Below, one piece after another: positions 22,579 to 37,661 of a stretch of DNA of 64,000 nt. The translations under genes and the position numbers were made by a program. Numbering within the stretch: position 1 is the first letter of the stretch; each line of letters opens with the position of its first letter. Below the pieces are notes generated by a model. That model was not told the origin of the DNA. It saw only the letters and a program-made list of their open reading frames with translations, and searched no databases. The stretch lies in NCBI GenBank assembly GCA_000437855.1, contig FR902206.1, forward strand, positions 5,080 to 69,079, in the 5' to 3' direction. The stretch comes from Clostridium sp. CAG:567 (GTDB taxonomy: Bacteria; Bacillota; Clostridia; TANB77; CAG-508).

Positions 22579-22986
22579 ATGAAGAAAGTAATTTCAATAT
22601 TATTTATATTATTAATCATATTTGGAACAGTTACTGTATATGCAAGTAACGCTCAAGAAAATACAATAACCTCAGAAACAGCTACAACTAATCTAGTAGG
22701 ATTAAAAGATAAAGCATTAAAAGCATTAGAAGATTATCAGGTAGCTTATGGAGACAATACTTACGGACTTGTTGCATATATTTTAAATATAGTTAGAATA
22801 TATAGCATTCCATTTGGTTTTGTAGGAATTGTTTTAGCAGCAATTTACCGTTATGTTATAGGTATTAGAAAACTAGATGTTCAAGATAAAGGATTTGGTG
22901 TACTAGTAGCTATTATTACAGTAATGGTAATTTGTCAAGTACTACCATTAATCTTTGCGATAGTTGTAAGAGGTTGGAGGGGTTAA
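22579..22986 (+). CDS. small secreted membrane protein (signal peptide + two TM helices)
   Basis: MKKVISILFILLIIFGTVTVYA/SNAQ, then two hydrophobic helices. The stop is followed within 5 nt by the next gene. Confidence 0.7.
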   Translation: MKKVISILFILLIIFGTVTVYASNAQENTITSETATTNLVGLKDKALKALEDYQVAYGDNTYGLVAYILNIVRIYSIPFGFVGIVLAAIYRYVIGIRKLDVQDKGFGVLVAIITVMVICQVLPLIFAIVVRGWRG

Positions 22987-22991
22987 AACGA

Positions 22992-25343
22992 ATGAAAGTA
23001 TTATTTGCAGTTAATAATGAAAGCATTTCTGAGTCAATAACAAAAAAATATCAACAAGAATATAAAGAAATTATCTCAGCAAAAAATGTGTATTATTTTA
23101 ATGCAATTATTAAAGAATTACAAAGAGATAAATCTTATGATAGAATTGTTATAAGTGAAGATTTACAACCATTTTCTAATAATAATTATGATCAAATAGA
23201 TAAATTTATTTTTGAGAAAATGGATAATATTAGCGATGAAGCAACAAAGCAAAATGGAAATGATATTCCAATAATTTTAATATGTGCTGATAGAAGAGAA
23301 AAATCAGATCCATTACTAGTTAAAATGTTTGGAATAGGTGTTTATAATGCTCTTATTGGAAAAGATAGGAGTATTACTGCTGTGTGTCAATTATTAAATA
23401 GACCACGTAGTAAAAAAGAAGCAAAAGTGTATTACCACATAGATCCTGATGATGTGGATTATAAAGTAGAAAATGAAGGAGACGTTAGTGAAGTTGAAAT
23501 TCAGAATATTTTAAATCACTATAAAAGACTTGGAAGGAATGAAGAACAATATGTTGAGAGCTTTGACCATATTGCGAGCCAATATACAGATTCACAATTA
23601 AGATTAATTGCTAAATTCTTACCACTAAACGTAAAAGCAGTACTAGAAGCTAATAGTCCAAAATATCAAGAAGTTGTTGCTTTAGGAATGCCTTCAAAAC
23701 CTGATAGAAAATACAATCAATATAATAATTATAAAAAGGATAAAGATAAAAACAAAGATAAGAATCAGAAAAATGTAAAACCAGTTGATGACACAAAAGA
23801 TTTAGATATAATAAAACAAAACTTAGAAAAAAATGTAATAACTGAACCAGTTATTATACCTTCAGCAATAAATACTAATTCAGTAAGAAAAGTGAACAGT
23901 GTAAAGCCAAAAGAAGAGCCAACAATTTCGCAACCAATATATCAGAATGAAAATGAAGAAGAAGATCTATTTGAAGATATAGTAACAGATGATGAACAAA
24001 TTGAAGAAAATCAAGAAGTTGAATTAGAACAACCAAAAAGAAGAGGAAGACCTAAAAAAATAAAAGCAGGACAAGAAGTGAAAGAACAAGAGGCAACAGT
24101 TGTAAAAAGAGGAAGAGGAAGACCTAAAAAACAACAAGAAGAAATAATAGAACAAGATGATGAAAACAGCGAAGAAGCAAATATTTTACCAGGCTTAGAA
24201 GAAGATGTATCATCTCCAGTAAATTTATTTGAACTAGGAGATGAAGAACAAAAAAGCAATACAAATCAAGAATCAGATAATGACATAATTTTACCAGGAA
24301 TAGATAATGAATTCCTATTTGCACAAGATGGTGATCAAAATGAAAGAAGTCATATAGGTGTTTCTAATTTGAATGAAAACAATAATATATCTTCAACTCC
24401 AAGAAATAATGATAGCATGGACTTGACACAAACAACAACAAATAATTATAATAACACAAGTACAGCGAGCATCATATCAAAGGATAAAAAAGTAGTTACA
24501 TTTATAGGAACATCAAAAAATGGAACATCATTCTTAGTAAATAATACTGCGGAAATTATTTCACAAAAAGGAATTAACACTGCAATTCTTGACTTAACTC
24601 AAAACAAAAATGCTTATTATATATACACTGAAAATGATGAAAACCTACGTAACATAGCTTATTCATCTATAGAAAACCTAAAAATTGGAAATGCTAAAGG
24701 AATTCAAGTACATAAAAATTTAGCAGTATATACTTCATTACCAGGTAAAAAACAAGATACTTCAAATTACACTAATATATTAGAAACTTTGACTAAAAAT
24801 TATTCTTTGGTAATTATTGATTGTGACTATGATACAGACTATAATTATTTTGCACAAGCACAAGAAATATATCTAGTGCAAAGTTTAGACATTTTAACTA
24901 TACAACCATTAACAGCATTTTTAAGAAATTTAAAAGCTAAAAATGCATTGAATCCAGAAAAAATCAGAGTAGTTTTAAATAAAATGGTTAACTTAAAAAG
25001 TGTAACAGAGAAGACAATTATTGGAGGAATGGCATATTACAATGACCCATCAATGTCATTTATGACAGAATTATTTAATAAAGACACTGTTAAATATTGT
25101 GTAATTCCGTTTGAAGAACAAACTTATGCAAAATACCTAGATGGAATTATCAATTGTAAAATTTCTTTAAATGGATATTCTAGAAATTGTATGACAGCAC
25201 TTAATACATTGAGTGATATGGTATATCCTTTAGTTGAAAATAATACAACAAGAAACAATAAAACATATAATTCATATAGCAGTGGAAACAATTTCTCAGC
25301 TAGTATGAATAGCACACTAAATAAAATGAAAAATAACTATTAA
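22992..25343 (+). CDS. receiver-like / AT-hook / degenerate ParA-MinD (CpaE/TadZ-like) protein
   Basis: ATG 22992 follows GGAGGGG. N-terminal CheY-like fold (MKVLFAVNNE..RIVISEDL). Low-complexity centre with PKRRGRPKK and KRGRGRPKK. C-terminal ParA-like region whose P-loop reads GTSKNGTS (no Lys). Confidence 0.7.
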   Translation: MKVLFAVNNESISESITKKYQQEYKEIISAKNVYYFNAIIKELQRDKSYDRIVISEDLQPFSNNNYDQIDKFIFEKMDNISDEATKQNGNDIPIILICADRREKSDPLLVKMFGIGVYNALIGKDRSITAVCQLLNRPRSKKEAKVYYHIDPDDVDYKVENEGDVSEVEIQNILNHYKRLGRNEEQYVESFDHIASQYTDSQLRLIAKFLPLNVKAVLEANSPKYQEVVALGMPSKPDRKYNQYNNYKKDKDKNKDKNQKNVKPVDDTKDLDIIKQNLEKNVITEPVIIPSAINTNSVRKVNSVKPKEEPTISQPIYQNENEEEDLFEDIVTDDEQIEENQEVELEQPKRRGRPKKIKAGQEVKEQEATVVKRGRGRPKKQQEEIIEQDDENSEEANILPGLEEDVSSPVNLFELGDEEQKSNTNQESDNDIILPGIDNEFLFAQDGDQNERSHIGVSNLNENNNISSTPRNNDSMDLTQTTTNNYNNTSTASIISKDKKVVTFIGTSKNGTSFLVNNTAEIISQKGINTAILDLTQNKNAYYIYTENDENLRNIAYSSIENLKIGNAKGIQVHKNLAVYTSLPGKKQDTSNYTNILETLTKNYSLVIIDCDYDTDYNYFAQAQEIYLVQSLDILTIQPLTAFLRNLKAKNALNPEKIRVVLNKMVNLKSVTEKTIIGGMAYYNDPSMSFMTELFNKDTVKYCVIPFEEQTYAKYLDGIINCKISLNGYSRNCMTALNTLSDMVYPLVENNTTRNNKTYNSYSSGNNFSASMNSTLNKMKNNY

Positions 25344-28216: not shown

Positions 28217-28771
28217 ATGAAAAAAGGCGAATTAGAACTAATTGATTATGCTATATATTTTGCAACAAAAGCACATACTGGTCAAAAAAGAAAAACAGAA
28301 CAAGATGTGGATATGATATTTCATCCATTCACAGTTGGAATGATTTTACAAAGAGCAGGAGCAAAGACTGAATGCGTAATAGCGGGGATATTACATGATG
28401 TGGTAGAAGACACAAAATACACACTAGAAGATATAAAAGAACAATTTGGAACTCAAGTTGCTAATATAGTAGATGAAGTTTCAGAAAATAAAAGTTTACC
28501 ATGGAAAGAAAGAAAAATAGAAGCAATAAATAAAATAAAAACAGCAAGTATGGATGGAAAACTTGTGGAATGTGCAGATAAGATCAGCAATTTAGAGTCT
28601 TTGTACAATTTGTATCAAGAAGAAGGGGAAGAAGTTTGGAAAAGCTTTAATAAACCAAAAGAAGAGCAAAAATGGTATTATACTAATATGTTTCAAGCCG
28701 TTTTAATGAATACTACAGAAGAAAATATGTTATTTGACAGATATAAAAGAATATTAAATAAAGTTTTTTAA
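28217..28771 (+). CDS. HD-domain protein of the RelA/SpoT hydrolase type (small alarmone hydrolase-like)
   Basis: ..KAHTGQKRK.., HPFTVGMIL, AGILHDVVEDT. There is no synthetase domain. Confidence 0.85.
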   Translation: MKKGELELIDYAIYFATKAHTGQKRKTEQDVDMIFHPFTVGMILQRAGAKTECVIAGILHDVVEDTKYTLEDIKEQFGTQVANIVDEVSENKSLPWKERKIEAINKIKTASMDGKLVECADKISNLESLYNLYQEEGEEVWKSFNKPKEEQKWYYTNMFQAVLMNTTEENMLFDRYKRILNKVF

Positions 28772-28915: not shown

Positions 28916-29104
28916 TTTTTCTGTACATGAAGGTTCAATACCACAAAGAGACGGAGAACTATTAAAACAATTACTAATATAAAAATACATAAATAAAATG
29001 TCTTAGAGTAATCTGAGGCATTTTTTAGTACATTGTAATTTTATTGAAAATTATTTTTTGTTATGTTAGAATATGAATGAATTGAAAGAGAAAGGAAATA
29101 AAAT

Positions 29105-32100
29105 ATGGATGAATATGTTTTAAAAAAATTGGAACTAATAAAAGCAAAATGGAAAGAAAAAAATGACTTTCAAGAAAAAGGAGTAATATTATTACCTAAA
29201 ATTATTTCTATAAACAATGTATATTACTTTGCTTATCCAATACTTAGCAAAAATGAAAATTCTGAATATGAATTGCAAAATTGGATATATCAAGAATTGA
29301 AAAAATTAGTATTAAAATATTCTCTTAAAAATAGTGATGATTATATTGGAAAAGTAAACTTTGATGAAGAAATGATAAACAATACATTAGATAATAAAGA
29401 TATATCAAAAGAATTTTTGAATCTATATAAATATATTACTGCAATTGTAACAAACAAAGAGAATAAAGAAATAGAACAAGGAAAATTAGATAAATTAATA
29501 GAGAAATATAATAAAAATTTACATGATAATTTAAATGAAGAAATTTTTAAAATTTATGAAAAAAATAATAATAGTGAAGATAATACAAGAGATAATCTTA
29601 AAGAAGTAAAGGTATCAGATGAGAAAGAAGGAAAGAATCAAAAAAATGGTGAAAATACAACAAATAGTAGTGAAAATGTAGTCGATAAATATTCTAAAGA
29701 AACAAAACAAATTTTAAAAGATATAGGTACTTTAAAAAATCTTGAAATAGTTGATTATGACTTTGAATGGAATTTGGTTCAAGGATTAAGATTTGCTTCA
29801 TTAGATTTTATAGAACTGTGTATCACAATACTAAAGAAAGGAGAAGTTTCATTAAAACAAGTTGTTGTAAATGAAAAGAATAAAATTGAAATTTCAAGTA
29901 AAATTCTTAGTTTATGTGATAACAGATTTCAAAAGGAAGAGACAAATGATGTTATATTAAAGAAAAAAATAGAAAATAATGAGATGATAAATAAAAGTTC
30001 AAATAATTTTACAACATTACCAAATGATTATGAAAACAGTTCATGTATTAAATGTAAATATAGTAAATGTCCTAAGTACTATGCTGGTTACATTTTATAT
30101 TTGAAAAACAAGGGATTATTAGAAACAAAATTAAAAGATAGAGAAGAATATAGAAGAAATAAATTTGAAAGTGATTATTTCACATTTAGATGGACTGTAG
30201 AAGACGGAGTTAAAAAAATTCCAGGGAAAACATTTGATATAGCATTAGCATTATTTAAAAATAATATGGTGTTTGTAGAACAAGGAGGAAGCCAAGACGG
30301 AGAAAATGCATCAGCAAAAATACATCTACCATTTGACTGTAATGTATATAAATTTAATTCGGATAATATTGAAAATATATTAAAGTATAAAGATACTCCT
30401 GTTAAAGGATGGAGAAATGTTACAAGAAATGTAAAAAAATTATTGTATAAATGTAATAGCTGGAATTGTGCACTACCATATTGTATATTTGATGTTGCTG
30501 GATATCTTTTTTATCTTGATAAAACAGGGCAATGGAAACAAGCTGAAGAAGATAGAAAATATTATGAAGAAAATAAAAAAGAAATAGAAGAACAGGCTTT
30601 GAAAGAACAAGAAGAACAGTTATGTAAATTTGAAGAAGAAGCTAAACAAAAAAGAGCTCAAGAAACTGAAAGAATATTAGAATATAAGAATAAAGCTCAA
30701 AATATTGAACAACTAATAGATAAAATAAATACAGAAGAAGGATTACATATATCTATTGAGGGTGAAAGAGGTACAGGAAAAATTGAATTGGCCAATAGAA
30801 TATGCAAATTACTAAAAGCAAATAATAAAATTGATAATGATGAACCGGAATACTTAAGCATTCATAATTTAGCATTCAAAAATACATACGAGAAGCTGGA
30901 AATTCCAGGTACTACAACATGGACTGTAAAAGAACTTTCTATTAGCAATAAGCATTTGTATGTTTTAACAGATATAAAAGAATTTATTAAGGAATATAAA
31001 AATATAAATAGTGAAGATAATGTTAATTATATTACTTTAAAAAGAATTAATAGAGTAATTGAATTGATAACATCTTTATTTGGAGAAGATTATATTATAT
31101 TGGCATCTGACAAAAAGTCGATTGACGAATTTTTAATGTTAGATTCAAAAATTAAATTTGTATATCAAAATAATAGATATGAAATTTCAAACTTATCAAT
31201 AGATGATTTATTTGAGTTATATTATAAAAGTTTAAATAATGAAATGTTGAACAAGCTAAGAAATGATACAGAACTTAGAGAAAAAATTAAAGAAAAATTT
31301 ATAGATTATGTGAGTATAAATGCAGAGTTCTTTCCATTTCAAAATGAGGAATTAGCAAGATACTTAGCAAATTATAGTATAAGTAAAAAAGATTTTGTTT
31401 TACCAGATAATATTTATAGAAGAGAAACTGTAGAGGAAAGCTTAAAGAAAATAATAGGCTTAAATACAGTAAAAGAAAATATAAAAAAATTTGAAAAGTA
31501 TGCACTATATACAGTAAAAGCTAGAAACTTAGGATTAGAAATGAATAAATCAAATTTACACATGATTTTTACAGGTAATCCTGGTACTGGAAAAACAACG
31601 GTGGCAAGAATTATGGCTAAAATGTTATATGATTTAGCTTTAATTTCAGAAAACAAATTAGTAGAAGTTGAAAGAAAAGATTTAGTTGCAAGTTATATTG
31701 GACAAACAGCACCGAAAACAGCAGAAGTAATTGCAAAGGCAATGGGAGGGGTCTTATTTATAGATGAAGCTTATACTCTAGCACAAGGAAATAAAGCAGA
31801 AAATGATTATGGAGCTGAAGCGGTTGCAACTTTAACCAAAGCAATGGAAGATCATAAGGATGATTTAGTGGTTATTTTTGCAGGATATAAAGATGAAATG
31901 AAGACATTTTTAGATATAAATCCAGGAATATCTTCAAGAATTGGTTATACATTTCACTTTGAAGATTATACTAGTGCTGAACTAAATCAAATGTTCTTTA
32001 TGAAAATGATGAATATGGGATATTCAGTGGATAAGAATGTGAATAAAAAACTATTAAAGATTTTCGACTATTTTATTAAGAAAAAGAACTTTGGAAATGG

Positions 32101-33586
32101 ACGTTTTATAGACAAACTAATTCAGGAAGTTGTTATGCAACACGCATTAAGAGAAACAAAAGATATAAGAGTAATTACTATAGATGACATACCAACAATA
32201 GAAGAATTAAATAATACAAATTATACAAATTATGATGCAGATAAAATGCTTAATGAGTTGGTAGGACTAAAAGATTTAAAAGAAAAAATTAAAGAATTTG
32301 AGAATTATATAAAATTCTTGAAAAAAGCAGAAGAGCAAAACTTAGTTATACCAAATCAAAATTTACACATGATTTTTACAGGAAACTCAGGTACGGGAAA
32401 AACAACTGTAGCAAGAATTATTGCAAAAATTTTATTTGATTTAGGAATGATTCATGAAAATAAACTAGTAGAAGTTGAAAGAAAAGATTTAGTGGCAGGT
32501 TATGTAGGACAAACAGCACAAAAAACCTCAGAAGTAATTGAAAAAGCAATGGGAGGAGTGTTATTTATAGATGAAGCCTATACTCTAGCACAAGGTAGTA
32601 AATCAGGAAATGATTTTGGTTCAGAAGCAGTTGCAACTTTAATTAAAGCAATGGAAGTCCATAAAGGAGAATTTGTAGTAATATTTGCAGGTTACAAAGA
32701 AGAAATGGGTGAATTCTTAAATATAAATTCAGGTATTGCATCAAGAGTTGGTTATATATTTAATTTTCCGGATTATACAGATGAAGAGTATTGTGAAATA
32801 TATTATAGAAAAATATCAGCATTAGGCTTGAAAATTGAAGATGATGCAAAAGAAAATGTTGAACAAGTGATGAAGTATTTTTGTAATGTGGAGAATAATG
32901 GAAATGGTAGGTTTGTAGATAAAGTTGTACAAAATACATTATTAAAACTTGCAAAAAAAGATGGGGACATTACTTTAGTAACAAAAGAATGCATACCATC
33001 AATTCAAGATATGACAAGAACTATGTTTGCTGGTGAATCTATGATAAATCCGGATTTTATTGATGAAAAATCTCAAAGAAGAACAGCAATTCATGAAATT
33101 GGACATGCAACTATAAGATATGTATTAGAAAAATTACCAGGAATTAAAAAAATTACTATAAATGCTGAAGGTACTGGAACACTAGGATATGTTGAATACA
33201 ATAATACTAATTTTAAATATACATCAAGCAAAAATGAATATTTGAATAGAATATGTGGACTTTTAGGTGGAATGTGTAATGAAATAATTTATTTTGGAGA
33301 ACATGAATCTGGTAATGGTAGTGATTTAGAAAAAGCTTCTAAGATTGTAACTAATATGATTACAAGATTTGGAATGTCAGACATGGGATTATATACATTT
33401 CCAGATGAGAAAGACACTGGTAAATACATATATGAGGAAGCTAATAAAATACTTGCCGAATGTTATGATAAAACAATTAAAATATTGACAGAAAATAAAG
33501 AAAAAACTCAAAAAGCAGTTGAATATTTACTTGAACATAAAGAAATTGACGAAAGTCAATTTGTAAAAATTATGAATAAATCATAA
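29105..33586 (+). CDS. 1493-aa soluble multi-AAA+ (SpoVK/CbbX-type) ATPase fused to an FtsH-type M41 metalloprotease
   Basis: Degenerate P-loop GERGTGKI (about aa 553). Two canonical modules with GNPGTGKTTVAR / GNSGTGKTTVAR Walker A and VLFIDEAY Walker B. C-terminal AIHEIGHA..GTLGYV..LLGGMCNEIIYFG..GSDLEKASKIV..FGMSD. No hydrophobic TM stretch. Confidence 0.9.
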   Translation: MDEYVLKKLELIKAKWKEKNDFQEKGVILLPKIISINNVYYFAYPILSKNENSEYELQNWIYQELKKLVLKYSLKNSDDYIGKVNFDEEMINNTLDNKDISKEFLNLYKYITAIVTNKENKEIEQGKLDKLIEKYNKNLHDNLNEEIFKIYEKNNNSEDNTRDNLKEVKVSDEKEGKNQKNGENTTNSSENVVDKYSKETKQILKDIGTLKNLEIVDYDFEWNLVQGLRFASLDFIELCITILKKGEVSLKQVVVNEKNKIEISSKILSLCDNRFQKEETNDVILKKKIENNEMINKSSNNFTTLPNDYENSSCIKCKYSKCPKYYAGYILYLKNKGLLETKLKDREEYRRNKFESDYFTFRWTVEDGVKKIPGKTFDIALALFKNNMVFVEQGGSQDGENASAKIHLPFDCNVYKFNSDNIENILKYKDTPVKGWRNVTRNVKKLLYKCNSWNCALPYCIFDVAGYLFYLDKTGQWKQAEEDRKYYEENKKEIEEQALKEQEEQLCKFEEEAKQKRAQETERILEYKNKAQNIEQLIDKINTEEGLHISIEGERGTGKIELANRICKLLKANNKIDNDEPEYLSIHNLAFKNTYEKLEIPGTTTWTVKELSISNKHLYVLTDIKEFIKEYKNINSEDNVNYITLKRINRVIELITSLFGEDYIILASDKKSIDEFLMLDSKIKFVYQNNRYEISNLSIDDLFELYYKSLNNEMLNKLRNDTELREKIKEKFIDYVSINAEFFPFQNEELARYLANYSISKKDFVLPDNIYRRETVEESLKKIIGLNTVKENIKKFEKYALYTVKARNLGLEMNKSNLHMIFTGNPGTGKTTVARIMAKMLYDLALISENKLVEVERKDLVASYIGQTAPKTAEVIAKAMGGVLFIDEAYTLAQGNKAENDYGAEAVATLTKAMEDHKDDLVVIFAGYKDEMKTFLDINPGISSRIGYTFHFEDYTSAELNQMFFMKMMNMGYSVDKNVNKKLLKIFDYFIKKKNFGNGRFIDKLIQEVVMQHALRETKDIRVITIDDIPTIEELNNTNYTNYDADKMLNELVGLKDLKEKIKEFENYIKFLKKAEEQNLVIPNQNLHMIFTGNSGTGKTTVARIIAKILFDLGMIHENKLVEVERKDLVAGYVGQTAQKTSEVIEKAMGGVLFIDEAYTLAQGSKSGNDFGSEAVATLIKAMEVHKGEFVVIFAGYKEEMGEFLNINSGIASRVGYIFNFPDYTDEEYCEIYYRKISALGLKIEDDAKENVEQVMKYFCNVENNGNGRFVDKVVQNTLLKLAKKDGDITLVTKECIPSIQDMTRTMFAGESMINPDFIDEKSQRRTAIHEIGHATIRYVLEKLPGIKKITINAEGTGTLGYVEYNNTNFKYTSSKNEYLNRICGLLGGMCNEIIYFGEHESGNGSDLEKASKIVTNMITRFGMSDMGLYTFPDEKDTGKYIYEEANKILAECYDKTIKILTENKEKTQKAVEYLLEHKEIDESQFVKIMNKS

Positions 33587-33616
33587 TAATAGAAATTTAT
33601 TAAGGAGATATATGAG

Positions 33617-33751
33617 ATGAGAGATAGTGAACTTATAAACAATTTAAGATATATTTTAGATAAAGATTGTGTAGAAAAATTAATAAAACACCATGATGAA
33701 GAATATGAAAAAACATTAAAAGAAATACGTAAAAAGGGAATGATTTTCTAG
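33617..33751 (+). CDS. possible small ORF (44 aa)
   Basis: AAGGAG upstream; MRDSELINNLRYILDKDCVEKLIKHHDEEYEKTLKEIRKKGMIF*. Below the track cutoff. Confidence 0.3.
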   Translation: MRDSELINNLRYILDKDCVEKLIKHHDEEYEKTLKEIRKKGMIF

Positions 33752-33793
33752 AAATATAAGTTATGATATACAAGAGGCCTGTTTGGAAAAAGG

Positions 33794-34291
33794 ATGGAAA
33801 ATATTATGAAAAATGAATCAAATTTAAAATATACATATAAACATAGAAAAGTAGTTATGTACTTAGCAAATAAGTACATAAAAGAAAATAAAGATGCAAT
33901 TTTATGTAGGATGAAAAATCATGATTTAGATAAAATGTTTATGTATTTGTTTTATGATAAAAAGGATGTGTCTCAAATACATAGAAGATTATCGTCACAT
34001 CATAAAAATGAACTAGAAAAAGACTATATAGATTATGTTGAAATGGTATTAGATTGGGAAAGTGCCAGATATACAAAACCAGATAAACCATTAAATGCTT
34101 ATGATACATTATACAAATATTATCCTACAATGGAAGAAAAAATAATACCAATATTAGAAGAATTTGAAATTAACAAATCAAATTTACCAATGGAAGAGGA
34201 TGTACTTGAATATGCTAATAGTATAAGTGAAGTATCAAATGAAGAAATAAAAAATGAGCTATTAAATTATATAAACAGTGAATGTATTTAG
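33794..34291 (+). CDS. hypothetical protein with His-rich putative metal motifs
   Basis: 165 aa; KNHDLDK and LSSHHKNE motifs. No confident family assignment. Confidence 0.55.
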   Translation: MENIMKNESNLKYTYKHRKVVMYLANKYIKENKDAILCRMKNHDLDKMFMYLFYDKKDVSQIHRRLSSHHKNELEKDYIDYVEMVLDWESARYTKPDKPLNAYDTLYKYYPTMEEKIIPILEEFEINKSNLPMEEDVLEYANSISEVSNEEIKNELLNYINSECI

Positions 34292-34355
34292 TTTATATTA
34301 ATAAGCATAAAATATTTGACAAGGAAAGTATGTAAAACTCAATATAAATTTTATG

Positions 34356-34389
34356 AAGCAAGTGATTAGTTGAAAATCACTTGCTTTTA
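34356..34389 (+). terminator. rho-independent terminator
   Basis: aagcaagtgatt-agttgaa-aatcacttgctt followed by tt. Confidence 0.8.
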
Positions 34390-34435
34390 TGATAAAATAT
34401 AGAATGTATTTAAAATAAAAAAATAGGTGAATAAA

Positions 34436-34470
34436 ATGAGTAATGAAAATAAGATGAATATTAACTGGTA
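34436..34470 (+). pseudogene. rbgA: stranded ancestral 5' end of rbgA (MSNENKMNINW-Y)
   Basis: AGGTGA RBS, then ATG ... ATG AAT ATT AAC TGG TA, interrupted by unrelated DNA. M-N-I-N-W-Y is the canonical RbgA N-terminus. Confidence 0.7.
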
Positions 34471-34634
34471 AAGAACGACTTATATAAACTTTCTCTTAAG
34501 CCCTTATTTTATAAGACTTTTTATTTAACTTCTTTTTACATTTTATAAGTAAAAATCAATTGGATTTTGAGGAAAAATGGGGTAATTACGACTTAAGGAA
34601 AACTTTTATATAAAAAATGAAGAAGGAGGTAGTA

Positions 34635-34930
34635 ATGAAGAAAATTGTAGATAGATATACTAATAATATTTTTGAAAATATTAAACATATGGATGAATAT
34701 GGAAATGAATATTGGTATGCTAGGGAACTTTCAAAAGTTTTAGAATATAGAGATTGAAGAAATTTTTTAAAGGTTTTAAATAAAGCAAAAGATGCTTGTA
34801 AAAATTCTGGGTTTAATATAGATGGACAACTTGTTGAGGTCAACAGGTTGTCAAAAAAAAACAATAATGCTATTGCTAATATACAAGATTATAAACTTTC
34901 AAGAAGAAAGGGAGCTTTCAAAAACAAAAT
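34635..34930 (+). pseudogene. DinD-like (DNA-damage-inducible protein D) gene remnant
   Basis: ..NIFENIKHMDEYGNEYWYARELSKVLEYRD*RNFLKVLNKAKDACKNSG... The TGA at 34755-34757 replaces the conserved Trp, and the 3' part diverges or is frameshifted. Confidence 0.65.
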
Positions 34931-34966
34931 CTTTTTAAAAGATGTTGAGGAGGATTAGATTTTATA

Positions 34967-35611
34967 ATGAAATTAATAGATGATACAGAATTTTTAGTAA
35001 TAGATTTTGAAACGATTACTCCAAAAGGAAGACCACCAGAGCCAATAGAAGTAGGAATATTAAGAATAAAACAAAAAAAAATAGATAATAATGCATCAAT
35101 TGATTGGCTGATTAAGCCACCAGAAGGTTTACACTTAACGCGTTTTGATACTTCACAAACAGGTATAACAGAACAAGATTTAATGCATGGTATAGATGCT
35201 AAAAGAGCAATGAGAATAATTGATAAATCTTGTTCAAAAAAAGACTATGTATTTATTGCACAAAATGCTAAATATGAAGCTAATATTTTATCTCATTATA
35301 CAGATGAATGTAAAGGAATAGCTAAAACACCAATAATAGATACTATTTTATTAGCCAAACATGTTTTACCAAAATTGTCAAATTACAAATTAGATACCTT
35401 GGCAAGCACATTGGGATTACGAATCCCAGAAAATAGGCATAGAGCTCTTTCTGATTGCTTTTTAACAGCAGAAGTCTTTTTAAAATTACTTGAACTACAA
35501 AAAGGAAAGCATGAGATAATATATTTGGATGAGTTATTAAATATTGCGAAAATAAAAACAAAATATAGCGAACCTCAACAATTGACATTGGGAGATTTCA
35601 TGGGATTGTAA
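34967..35611 (+). CDS. DnaQ-like 3'-5' exonuclease (DEDDh)
   Basis: LVIDFETITP (Exo I), FIAQNAKYEANIL (Exo II), HRALSDCFLTAEVF (Exo III, H-x4-D). Confidence 0.8.
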   Translation: MKLIDDTEFLVIDFETITPKGRPPEPIEVGILRIKQKKIDNNASIDWLIKPPEGLHLTRFDTSQTGITEQDLMHGIDAKRAMRIIDKSCSKKDYVFIAQNAKYEANILSHYTDECKGIAKTPIIDTILLAKHVLPKLSNYKLDTLASTLGLRIPENRHRALSDCFLTAEVFLKLLELQKGKHEIIYLDELLNIAKIKTKYSEPQQLTLGDFMGL

Positions 35612-35648
35612 AGATAACTTTTATTTAACGAAATGGGGTGCGATAATA

Positions 35649-35690
35649 ATGCAAATTGGAATTGATGTAGATGGAGTATTACTTGATTAA
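35649..35690 (+). pseudogene. 13-codon stub resembling an HAD/5'-nucleotidase N-terminus
   Basis: MQIGIDVDGVLLD* (DxDGVL motif), then a stop. Confidence 0.3.
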
Positions 35691-35700
35691 AATATTAAAG

Positions 35701-36455
35701 TAAATATTACAAACATAGATGATAATGATTATATTTGTATTTCTGATTTTGGTAAATACAAAGAGGGAAAATCGAAAGCTGATGACATTATAAGAAACTG
35801 GTTAAGAAATAGAATTACTTTGGAATTTTTAGGAACATGGGAGTCTATTTATAATCCAAATTTTAATTCCGTCGAATTCGACGGGTTTAGAAAAAGTGCA
35901 GGACTTCATACATTTACATTAAGTGTTACTGAATGGTGTGATAAAACAAATGCGATTGGAATATATTCAAAGCGTGGAAAATATGGTGGAACATATGCAC
36001 ATAAAGATATTGCATTTGAATTTGCATCAGCAATTAGTCCCGTTTTTAAATTGTATTTAATAAAGGAATTTGAGAGATTAAAGGAGTTAGAAAATCAGAA
36101 TAGAGAAGGGGATGTAAAAAGAATACTAACGAAAAATAATTATTTGATACATACTGATGCAATTAAAAATTATATATTGCCAGATAATGATTTTTATAAA
36201 AATAGAGAATGGTTAAAGCATGCTGAAGAAGCAGATTTTTTGAATGTTGCAGTATTTAATACAACGGCTAAAAAATGGAGAGAACTTAATCCTGAATTAG
36301 CAAAAACATCTAATTTTGCAAGAAGTCATATAGAAGCAGATATGTATTTTGAAAATATTTTTCCAGCTTTAAATATTAGGTTTATATCTATTATAGAAAA
36401 TATAGATAGCATAATTATATTTCAAAATGGAGAAATAAACGTAAAATTCAAGTAA
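35701..36455 (+). pseudogene. KilA-N domain gene lacking its start, 3' end fused to a recombinase-tail-like segment
   Basis: The open frame without ATG begins ..NITNIDDNDYICISDFGKY..IIRNWLRNRITLEFLGTWESIYNPNF..YAHKDIAFEFASAISPVFKLYLIKEF. The last ~19 aa (IENIDSIIIFQNGEINVKFK) resemble serine-recombinase C-termini. Confidence 0.6.
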
Positions 36456-36677
36456 AGGAGTGAACATAGATGAATAAAGAAAAAGATCAAAATAGTTATC
36501 ACAAAATCAACCTTAACTGGTAAAGAACGACTCATATAAACTCTCTTTAAAACTCTTATTTTATAAGGCTTTTAATTAAATTTCTTTTTACAATTTTTAA
36601 TAAAAAATTAACAAAAATTATAAGAAAAATTGGGTAAGAACTACTTAAAGAAACTTTTTTATAAGAAGGTGAATATT

Positions 36678-37364
36678 TTGAAGATAGAAGATTTAAGAAA
36701 AGATTATGATGAATTACAAGTTAAATATGGTGCTAAGGAATTAGATTCTATATATAATGGTGGATGTGAAAAAAATCCTGATATATGTTTTGTTTTTATG
36801 AATCCTACCGGAAAAAATATTGCCAGTGATAAATCTTGGAAAGGTAGAAAGTCTCCATGGTTAGGAACTAAAAATATATGGAAGTTGTTCTATAAAGTTG
36901 ATTTATTAAGTGAAGAAACATTTAACAAAATTCAAGAAAAGAAACCAAAAGAATGGGATTATGAGTTTTGCAACTATGTTTACGAAGAAATTGAAAAAAA
37001 TAAATTGTTCATTACTAATTTAGGTAAATGTACACAAATAGATGCAAGACCGTTGCCTGATGAAGTGTTAAAAAAATATCTTGATTTATTATTCAAAGAA
37101 ATAAACATAATTAAACCAAAAATAATTATTACTTTTGGAAACCAAGTTAGTTCTATTATTTTAAATAAAAAGATATCTGTATCTGAAAATAGAAAAAAAT
37201 GTCACAAAATACAAATTAATAAAAACGAATATAAAGTTTATCCTGTTTATTATCCAGTAGGTAATGGCATATTTAATATTGATAAATCGATAGAAGATAT
37301 AAAATGGATAATTGAAAATGAAATAAAAAAAGAAGAACAAAATCTTCTTTGTAAAATTTTATAG
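36678..37364 (+). CDS. uracil-DNA glycosylase superfamily protein (tentative)
   Basis: CFVFMNPTGKN and ITNLGKCTQ resemble UDG-superfamily active-site motifs. TTG 36678 follows AAGGTGAA; the track start 36630 lies in the repeated element end. Confidence 0.55.
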   Translation: MKIEDLRKDYDELQVKYGAKELDSIYNGGCEKNPDICFVFMNPTGKNIASDKSWKGRKSPWLGTKNIWKLFYKVDLLSEETFNKIQEKKPKEWDYEFCNYVYEEIEKNKLFITNLGKCTQIDARPLPDEVLKKYLDLLFKEINIIKPKIIITFGNQVSSIILNKKISVSENRKKCHKIQINKNEYKVYPVYYPVGNGIFNIDKSIEDIKWIIENEIKKEEQNLLCKIL

Positions 37365-37381
37365 AAAGTTGTAATAATAAG

Positions 37382-37633
37382 ATGACATATAAGGTAGCAG
37401 CGTATCTTCGTTTATCAAAAGAAGAATATAGTAATGAAAAAGAATCAAATAGCATAACTAATCAAAAATTAATTATAGATAATTATTTAAAAGAACATAG
37501 AGAATATAAATTAATTGATTATTATATAGATGATGGTTATTCGGGTACTAATTTTGATAGATTAGAATTAGAAAATAAAGTAAAATGTATTTATATTGAT
37601 AAGAATAAAAATGTTAAAATTGATATTAAATAA
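37382..37633 (+). pseudogene. large serine recombinase, internally deleted (N-terminal catalytic segment fused to the C-terminal tail)
   Basis: KVAAYLRLSKEE..NSITNQKLII..YYIDDGYSGTNFDR (catalytic Ser motif) runs directly into ..VKCIYIDKNKNVKIDIK*. It is only 83 aa instead of about 500. Confidence 0.8.
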
Positions 37634-37661
37634 AAAATTTAAAAGAAAGGAAGGATAATAT

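Follow-up and report, generated by a model that had tools for sequence, protein, structure and literature searches.

The window analyzed in this work, a stretch of 64,000 nucleotides (nt) from contig FR902206.1 of Clostridium sp. CAG:567, contains on its forward strand an intact open reading frame (ORF), 29105..33586, which runs in a single uninterrupted frame from an ATG start and codes for a protein of 1493 amino acids (aa) plus stop. From its N to its C terminus, this protein combines a variable extension, two putative zinc-type modules, a charged linker, a degenerate AAA module, two apparently competent AAA modules related to those of SpoVK, CbbX, and EccA, and an FtsH-type M41 metallopeptidase. 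We consider it probable that this is a soluble, self-contained, lineage-specific AAA+ zinc metalloprotease with stacked rings, whose N-terminal domain (N-domain) selects dedicated substrates. The coding sequence has the same G+C content (~0.24-0.27) and skew as the flanking DNA. A Shine-Dalgarno-like GAAAGGA (29090-29096, + strand) lies 8 nt ahead of the ATG, and 33 nt before the ATG is TTGAAA-17-TAGAAT with a TG extension (29044..29072, + strand). This is the best match on that strand (10/12) and might serve as a promoter; the counts of such promoter-like sites in this AT-rich DNA are no higher than in shuffles. The product is identical to the NCBI entry CDE97125.1, named "stage V sporulation protein K [Clostridium sp. 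CAG:567]," whose cluster at the 90% identity level counts 558 members, the contigs being up to 1.39 Mb long. The recurrence of the identical protein on many independent contigs establishes it as the product of a real gene from a common human-gut organism rather than an assembly artifact. No segment attains transmembrane (TM)-grade hydropathy (the maximum 19-residue Kyte-Doolittle mean is 1.36), and the protein is thus soluble.

An initial annotation of this DNA had described the product as a soluble 1493-aa protein without TM segments, with a C-terminal FtsH-type protease domain, two SpoVK/CbbX/EccA-type AAA modules, a degenerate P-loop module (GERGTGKI at about nt 30761), and an N terminus unlike anything recognized. 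This description is upheld in all these respects by the profile searches, alignments, and structure models presented here. The C-terminal domain (33035..33583, + strand; aa 1311-1493) matches the Pfam Peptidase_M41 family (PF01434) at aa 1318-1489 with an E value of 9e-31. It is collinear with the peptidase domain of T. maritima FtsH (structures 2ce7/3kds), such that AIHEIGHA corresponds to AYHEAGHA and GNGSDLEKAS to GAANDIERAT. The signature H1330-E1331-x2-H1334 is invariant in all 10 aligned relatives, down to 37% identity, as is D1407, which corresponds to the Asp that provides the third zinc ligand in FtsH. The collinearity extends upstream into the adjacent AAA module: in a PDB sequence search, aa 1058-1491, covering AAA module 2 and M41, correspond to residues 21-457 of 2ce7. 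The FtsH profile TIGR01241 scores only 103 bits against its cut-off of 600, with the match confined to profile positions 411-597, i.e., the M41 part. As a side observation, three short proteins of ~220-240 aa (P0110, P0115, and P0118) are essentially M41 alone or a lid with M41; given that their contigs are 9-23 kb long, they are probably not truncated and appear as stand-alone peptidases without an ATPase.

Upstream of the peptidase, Pfam recovers two units of AAA plus AAA_lid_6. Module 1 with its lid occupies 31421..32224 (+ strand; aa 773-1040) and scores 255 bits with SpoVK, 233 with CbbX, and 210 with EccA; module 2 with its lid occupies 32228..33004 (+ strand; aa 1042-1300), as delimited by Pfam, NCBIfam, and a 10-sequence alignment. 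For the whole protein, SpoVK, CbbX, and EccA rank first among the NCBIfam families, and each single live module falls below all three equivalog cut-offs. A PDB sequence search with module 1 retrieves CbbX (E 1e-52) and EccA1 (E 2e-44), and no PDB AAA protein besides these two matches at E 1e-20 or better. Module 1 displays a Walker A motif GNPGTGKT (K830), a Walker B motif FIDEAY (D887, E888), a pore loop Y864-I-G866, the sensor-1 signature FAGY, the Arg finger R945, and the sensor-2 motif GNGR (R1000). The counterparts in module 2 are GNSGTGKT (K1099), D1156/E1157, Y1133-V-G1135, R1214, and GNGR (R1269). In the 10-sequence alignment, which reaches down to 37% identity, K830, D887, E888, Y864, R945, and R1000 of the first module and K1099, D1156, E1157, Y1133, R1214, and R1269 of the second are all invariant. 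The sensor-1 GY signature takes the form FAGYK in both live modules, with G927/Y928 and G1196/Y1197 likewise invariant, as is the Asn of the second region of homology (SRH; N939 and N1208). The residue at N+4 from this Asn is Ser or Ala rather than Arg, and only the Arg at N+6 is retained, namely R945 and R1214. These two align with the second Arg of the CbbX motif NPGFRSR, which we take to be its tested Arg finger, R194. On the strength of the GY motif, the SRH Asn, and the sensor-2 Arg, we place the live motors within the SpoVK/CbbX/EccA higher-order clade, from which they deviate at N+4.

The two live modules are preceded by a further AAA module, of the CbbX type and degenerate (30722..31420, + strand; aa 540-772), which is recognizable by hhalign and Foldseek; Pfam P-loop matches to this region are at noise level only, and NCBIfam yields none. 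Its Walker A motif, G553-x5-K559 (GERGTGKI, with G553 at nt 30761), retains an invariant G553 and K559. The Walker B position reads LYVLTDIKEF, without the catalytic Glu, and there is no arginine finger. A family alignment of this module compared with AAA module 2 by hhalign gives a probability of 82% (E 1e-5), with collinear Walker A, Walker B, sensor-1 strand, and lid. In an AlphaFold2 (AF2) model of aa 1-790, the region adopts a beta-alpha-beta core with a helical lid. When this model was compared with the PDB by Foldseek, only AAA+ ATPase structures were found, and the four significant matches are all to CbbX (3zuh/3syk; E 3e-5 to 7e-4, probability 1.00). It is thus a genuine AAA module. 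The preservation of the P-loop Gly and Lys, together with the loss of the Walker B Glu and the Arg finger, suggests a tier that would at best bind nucleotide without hydrolyzing it.

The N-terminal third of the protein has no counterpart in the databases searched. Its first part, the N-terminal extension (29105..29680, + strand; aa 1-192), is predicted to be alpha/beta and to end in a disordered linker rich in K, E, and N (aa 153-192); the AF2 predicted local distance difference test (pLDDT) score is ~70-80 over the extension and drops below 50 in the linker. The extension is restricted to a part of the family, being missing from several members. It is followed by two putative zinc-type modules, the first at 29681..30169 (+ strand; aa 193-355) and the second at 30170..30604 (+ strand; aa 356-500), whose homology to each other is apparent from hhalign (probability 97%, E 1e-10). 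Each repeat of ~140 aa presents the same order of elements: a YDFEW-type motif (YDFEWN in module 1), a helix with a beta-hairpin, a CxxC-type knuckle within a loop, a Cys that starts an AGY(I/L)xYL helix (AGYILYL in module 1 and AGYLFYL in module 2), and a (D/E)RxxY helix (DREEYRR and DRKYY, respectively). The initial annotation had noted two copies of a three-Cys motif, and both the number of copies and their positions are correct; a fourth invariant Cys upstream of each (C271 and C412) makes them Cys4 modules instead. The invariant sets are C271/C314/C317/C322 in module 1 (C314 at nt 30044) and C412/C450/C455/C460 in module 2 (C450 at nt 30452). From this pattern, the two Cys4 sites probably bind metal, most likely zinc. 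Of the 113-131 module instances across the family, ~80% retain the last two Cys and 82-89% the AGY..Y helix. A charged linker (30605..30721, + strand; aa 501-539) connects the modules to the ATPase tiers; it makes up most of a long AF2 helix (aa 491-526), and its pLDDT is below 50 at aa 519-539. This long helix could have a coiled-coil or oligomerization role.

The AF2 model of aa 193-500, obtained from nine sequences only, has a mean pLDDT of 85.5 and a predicted template modeling score (pTM) of 0.82. Foldseek with this model found no match in the PDB (best E 0.74) or in BFVD (best E 0.08). At the sequence level, aa 1-500 match no Pfam or PHROG family, Pfam at E values of up to 10 returning only noise (DUP, SLATT_fungal); no zinc-finger or SWIM fold emerged from Pfam at that threshold or from Foldseek against the PDB and BFVD. 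Among the best 25 NCBIfam families and the PDB sequence matches listed, none has its best stretch within aa 1-478, and PADLOC reports nothing ahead of aa 493. The ~140-aa Cys4 module is therefore put forward as a candidate new fold and Pfam family, one that appears to be confined to this architecture.

Conventional word-indexed homology searches with the protein were swamped by AAA matches or by low-complexity words of K, E, and N and returned few relatives; the family was hence defined by exhaustive profile and genome scans. A profile search with the N-domain through 1.84 billion representatives yielded 83 clusters at 50% identity, and a scan of 185,579 GTDB species genomes yielded 16 loci in as many species, each carrier being an uncultured clostridial or Eubacteriales metagenome-assembled genome from the gut of human, mouse, roe deer, or sheep. 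The 16 loci and ~40 long representatives share a common layout: one to three zinc modules, the dead AAA module, one to three live AAA modules, and M41. A few long representatives lack M41, but these end at or just past an AAA module, so that their C termini seem to have been cut off, and one entry (P0091) shows a zinc module only. The N-domain was seen in no other architecture in the family searches, and the pairing of AAA_lid_6 with M41 was encountered in this family only among the searches made. Neither the 50,697 phage records nor the 72,556 plasmid records searched contained a tblastn match to aa 193-770, and an aa 193-500 profile matched no IMG/VR contig; a mobile or viral origin was accordingly rejected.

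Every domain is under purifying selection, with ratios of nonsynonymous to synonymous substitution rates (omega) of 0.01-0.39 over four species pairs. The AAA tiers show values of 0.01-0.09 in the three sufficiently divergent pairs, within which the degenerate module, at 0.05-0.09, is also strongly constrained; M41 shows 0.09-0.15, the zinc modules 0.08-0.35, and the N-terminal extension, which is the fastest-evolving part, up to 0.27-0.39. Separately, we observed that synonymous divergence (dS) is uneven along the gene. In the pair L015/L016, the zinc modules and N-terminal extension have values of 0.44-0.71, compared with 0.07-0.12 for M41 and the live AAA modules, and in L018/L019, it is 1.4-1.7 in the zinc modules versus 0.30 in M41. 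This suggests that the receptor half may have been swapped independently of the motor and protease, with codon constraint as the alternative.

The two live modules bear the marks of a dynamic history. A repeat core at 31552..31851 (+ strand) recurs at 32359-32658, offset by 807 nt and 85% identical, whereas the whole 261-codon module is only 67% identical between the copies at the nucleotide level and 52% at the aa level. Thus, the offset given in the initial annotation is exact, and its estimate of about 80% nucleotide identity holds for the core but not for the module as a whole. Its interpretation, a recent internal tandem duplication, captures the homogenized cores and misses the age of the array: both live modules are already present in relatives with N-domain identity down to ~30%, and by phmmer E values, whole modules are closer to their positional counterparts in other species than to their sisters in the same protein. 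On the strength of this cross-species comparison, recent duplication was rejected as the sole explanation. In several species, nucleotide identity within the core equals or exceeds amino acid identity (85% versus 81% in the window and 81% versus 73% in L002), and in the window's core, identical residues use the same codon at a frequency of 0.79 versus 0.61 expected from the codon usage of the gene. Modules 2 and 3 of L012 are 97% identical, and the number of live modules varies from one to three across the family. High nucleotide identity of this kind more likely reflects strong constraint combined with recombination or gene conversion inside the gene, and the modules are best described as an ancient tandem array that unequal recombination or gene conversion has partly homogenized and resized.

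A single metagenome-assembled genome, L020, has two tandem paralogs, of which one (L020:3409-8646) has three live AAA modules and the other (L020:9929-13802) is interrupted by a frameshift or stop that leaves two ORFs; the L022 gene likewise comprises two ORFs. A further sign of recombination comes from collapsed variants. In P0011 and P0013, which are relatives of P0003/P0004, the second zinc module is gone, through a deletion between two KLL repeats, and the single AAA module is a hybrid of the 5' half of module 1 and the 3' half of module 2. These two entries represent either a real recombinational collapse or an assembly collapse of the internal repeat.

Taken together, these features allow a mechanism to be proposed. 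The M41 domain would assemble into a ring enclosing a proteolytic chamber, as in FtsH. Above it, the two competent CbbX/SpoVK-type AAA tiers would thread a polypeptide by ATP hydrolysis through the loops Y864-I-G and Y1133-V-G, and the threaded substrate would be cleaved inside the chamber. The degenerate tier, which probably binds nucleotide without hydrolysis, might form a structural or regulatory collar, and on top of it, the long helix, the two Cys4 modules, and the variable N-terminal extension could act as the receptor for a dedicated substrate or adaptor. How many live AAA tiers (1-3) and zinc modules (1-3) a chain carries differs from species to species, probably through intragenic recombination. 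The per-chain AAA totals of two, three, and four cannot all close a ring of six modules, which argues for stacked rather than in-plane tiers; an in-plane pseudohexamer was thought unlikely because the module total varies from two to four while M41 presumably still forms its ring. The proposed receptor role fits, by analogy, the narrow-client habit of the SpoVK/CbbX/EccA clade, and our best guess for the function is the regulated degradation or quality control of a few cytosolic clients. The initial annotation had likewise ventured a cytosolic unfoldase-protease with a dedicated, undescribed N-domain, a proposal in keeping with the invariant catalytic motifs, the conserved architecture, the purifying selection, and the unmatched N terminus.

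Several points weigh against this interpretation. A divergent member of the family, P0015, has lost the Cys ligands, and this loss, along with the retention of the last two Cys in only ~80% of all module instances, implies that zinc is not universally required. Both live modules lack the first of the two SRH arginines of CbbX and SpoVK (NPGISSR versus NPGFRSR), and communication between subunits could be altered as a result. The predicted ATPase and protease activities, the oligomeric state, and the binding of zinc are deduced from motifs and homology, and the notion of a dedicated client is an argument by analogy. Moreover, those proteins of the SpoVK/CbbX/EccA clade that have been characterized act on their clients by remodeling, not by degradation (PMC11513918).

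The genomic setting bears both on the autonomy of the protein and on alternative readings of its role. The gene order in the window is AddA, DnaE, a GGDEF protein, RuvX, an HD_4 protein, the AAA-M41 gene, a variable island, YlqF, RecN, LysS, Tig, ClpP, ClpX, LexA, and MreB. A syntenic relative, L011, is the same on both sides (ruvX ... ylqF) but without the HD gene and the island. Hence, the AAA-M41 gene is a chromosomal resident beside an insertion hotspot and not its cargo. Within the island (~7.9 kb, 33600-41450), which lies between this gene and ylqF, are genes for a DEDDh/RNase T exonuclease (34967-35611), a KilA-N protein (35820-36455), and a member of the UDG superfamily (36630-37364), followed by an ORF of 83 aa that by eye resembles an N-terminal resolvase fragment (37382-37633), by RhuM (37662-38684), and by a SAG1250-type relaxase fragment (40625-41134). 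Since L011 lacks the island, it gives the impression of an integrative element that has decayed at the hotspot. The HD_4 protein (28217-28771) is a stand-alone protein of 184 aa that matches the hydrolase part of RelA/SpoT only and so resembles a small alarmone hydrolase. The initial annotation had correctly recognized this hydrolase-type neighbor and the variable island downstream, but the link to the adjacent HD gene, which it had proposed to pursue through co-variation, does not hold: the HD gene is found beside the AAA-M41 gene in the same species (L001) only and is absent from L011 and all other contexts.

More generally, no conserved neighbor emerged from the called genes of P0001, P0010, P0006, and P0014, from all-against-all clustering of neighbors at the 16 loci, or from the genes immediately upstream. 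The neighbors elsewhere in the family include DUF4116 and Sel1 proteins, GroESL a few kilobases off, an ABC-F ATPase, a methyltransferase, and a DUF4435 protein. The lack of a conserved partner gene rules out the HD link and fits a self-sufficient single-chain machine. That clpP and clpX are encoded 17 kb downstream, in a tig-clpP-clpX cluster of the same window, indicates that the protein is an addition to ClpXP and not its replacement. The groES-groEL pair lies 3-5 kb upstream in L005, L015, and L016 only and is not in the window; the species with this arrangement include N-domains just 37-38% identical to that of the window, and the proximity may be residual synteny, chance, or a proteostasis neighborhood. 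As no CIRCE or CtsR operator was found anywhere in the 64 kb, heat-shock control was rejected. Farther upstream, an 803-aa ORF (22932-25343) with a long low-complexity middle rich in acidic residues, Q, and N has no Pfam or NCBIfam match; its C-terminal part contains, by eye, a P-loop-like GTSKNGTS.

This neighborhood, together with the uneven evolution of the protein, raises the alternative of an anti-phage or conflict effector, in which the fast-evolving zinc-module receptor would sense a phage or other foreign protein and license the destruction of essential host or invader proteins by an abortive-infection logic, as in a single-chain counterpart of paired ATPase and protease systems like IetAS. 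We regard this as unlikely, though it is the alternative with the most to be said for it. The AAA modules have weak matches to IetA (PADLOC E 5e-19; NCBIfam IteA 77 bits), and the family is rare and taxonomically narrow. The gene adjoins an island with RhuM, KilA-N, a DEDDh exonuclease, and recombinase/relaxase fragments, a DUF4435 (Toprim-like) gene is directly downstream in one relative, and L020 has tandem paralogs. The N-terminal parts evolve fastest, and their dS, several-fold above that of the motor and protease, suggests an independent exchange of the receptor. Yet the IetA matches amount to generic AAA similarity, at 77 bits against a cut-off of 510 and far under the SpoVK and CbbX scores, and outside these AAA regions, PADLOC models match nothing in the protein; membership in a known defense system was therefore rejected. 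In two species, the gene itself is located beyond the island, in a syntenic stretch of the core chromosome (ruvX ... ylqF); its neighbors are mostly housekeeping genes that differ by species; no homologs are found in phages, plasmids, or IMG/VR contigs; and the domain-averaged omega is well below 1.

A true SpoVK ortholog or paralog, acting in spore cortex or coat assembly, is what the public name of the identical sequence would imply, and the Clostridium-like Firmicute host would be in keeping with such a role. The whole protein does score 484.5 bits on TIGR02881 (SpoVK), above the cut-off of 422.95. However, its single live AAA modules reach only 255 and 245 bits, and the CbbX and EccA scores are nearly equal. 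The name thus arises because two sub-threshold modules sum past the equivalog cut-off. [quoted passage not shown] Furthermore, SpoVK tracks the sporulating Bacillota (PMC11513918), whereas the present family is confined to 16 GTDB species. We thus hold a sporulation role of this kind to be quite improbable. Independently of this case, the summing of sub-threshold modules over an equivalog cut-off looks like a general mechanism for the mis-annotation of tandem-domain proteins.

Comparably improbable, and if anything a shade more so, is a non-proteolytic remodeling chaperone in which M41 would be a mere oligomerization scaffold, like the inactive plant FtsHi proteins. The M41 domain of FtsH does provide the platform for the hexamer. 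The known members of the SpoVK/CbbX/EccA clade are, in addition, chaperones (PMC11513918). Against this, the HEXXH motif, the catalytic Glu, and the third-ligand Asp, which are lost in FtsHi, are invariant in 10/10 relatives and aligned with those of active FtsH, and the M41 domain evolves at an omega of 0.09-0.15. Finally, a chimeric origin of the ORF in assembly, which the initial annotation had named as a way in which its reading might fail, or its origin as a fusion of separate genes now in decay has next to no probability: the shorter entries P0002 (1200 aa), P0011, and P0013 (both with a single AAA module and lacking the second zinc module) and the frameshifted copies in L020 and L022 could be cited for it, but the identical protein is found on many contigs of up to 1.39 Mb in its 558-member cluster, and the same domain order is seen in 16 species with purifying selection throughout. 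We take the gene to be real, conserved, and functional.

Returning to the soluble AAA+ metalloprotease, we would more tentatively, with a little less than even confidence, see in this family an unrecognized type of bacterial cytosolic ATP-dependent protease, to be set beside ClpXP/ClpAP, HslUV, Lon, FtsH, and the proteasome, and the first peptidase-coupled member of the SpoVK/CbbX/EccA clade, equipped with a new tandem Cys4 zinc fold as its receptor, a dead collar, and one to three motor tiers whose number evolves by intragenic recombination. A bolder extension would have the receptor half swapped between strains apart from the motor, tracking a changing phage or competitor protein.

How such a protein relates to known machines can be seen from several comparisons. 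With FtsH, it shares the M41 domain with its HEXXH motif and Asp ligand, the AAA module placed directly N-terminal to it in a collinear arrangement, and, presumably, the threading of substrates into a proteolytic chamber. Unlike canonical FtsH, in which two N-terminal TM helices flank an extracytoplasmic domain, it has no TM anchor or periplasmic domain; it has three tandem AAA modules of the SpoVK/CbbX type with AAA_lid_6, where FtsH has one with AAA_lid_3; and it has a 540-aa soluble N-terminal region as its putative receptor, differences that are reflected in the TIGR01241 score of 103 versus 600 bits. The membrane anchors of FtsH and its mitochondrial relatives make these enzymes hard to study. 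Indeed, engineered soluble hexamers have been needed for the membrane-anchored FtsH relatives (e.g., PMC5095350). A native soluble M41 machine with one to three motor tiers could thus provide a comparative system for how stacked AAA rings cooperate, within the limits set by a narrow host range of uncultured gut Clostridia.

In ClpA/ClpC-ClpP and Cdc48/VAT-20S, a compartmentalized protease is fed by a pair of active AAA tiers, stacked on each other and provided with aromatic pore loops, and an N-domain is the receptor for substrates or adaptors; the present architecture may be functionally analogous. The differences are that its protease is in cis and is a metalloprotease, that its motors come from another AAA clade, and that the number of tiers varies by species. 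On the best reading, the protein would function like FtsH or a ClpA-ClpP double-ring protease while being a member of neither the FtsH nor the SpoVK family. The ClpX N-terminal zinc domain, SWIM, and treble-clef domains also come to mind, as an impression from the motif and the predicted secondary structure and with no fold match, by virtue of a Cys-rich domain N-terminal to an unfoldase, a CxxC knuckle, and a Cys at a helix start. The alpha/beta module described here differs from these domains in its far greater size (~140 aa) and in its occurrence as a tandem pair. The IetAS system similarly pairs a AAA+ ATPase (IetA, to which there is distant similarity) with a serine protease. It differs in that the NF042959 score of 77.5 bits is far below the cut-off of 510, the protease here is a fused M41 domain, and the gene is not located in a defense island; no S8 protease corresponding to IetS was found among the flanking ORFs in Pfam scans or among the called genes with Pfam matches in related loci.

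The closest relationship of the motors is to the CbbX/SpoVK/EccA clade, which provides the best matches for all three AAA modules and with which they share the GY sensor-1, the Asn at the start of the SRH (NPG), the sensor-2 Arg (GNGR), and a variable N-terminal domain that would recruit clients. The clients of this clade are diverse, with CbbX acting on RuBisCO, SpoVK on MurG, and EccA on substrates of the type VII secretion system (PMC11513918). The present protein departs from the clade in its fusion to a peptidase, in the repetition of its modules one to three times together with a dead copy, in the replacement of the first SRH Arg (NPGFR) by Ser or Ala, and in the failure of each single live module to reach the equivalog cut-offs. 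The 2024 study that defined the clade reported no fusion or association with peptidases in it and used this to argue that its members are remodeling chaperones (PMC11513918), and our literature searches found no described soluble fusion of a SpoVK-type ATPase with M41. The family described here is a counterexample to that statement, indicating that a motor of this clade can be wired to a degradation chamber. The family thus couples a familiar protease domain, M41, to motors of a clade in which no protease had been seen before and to a new receptor domain.

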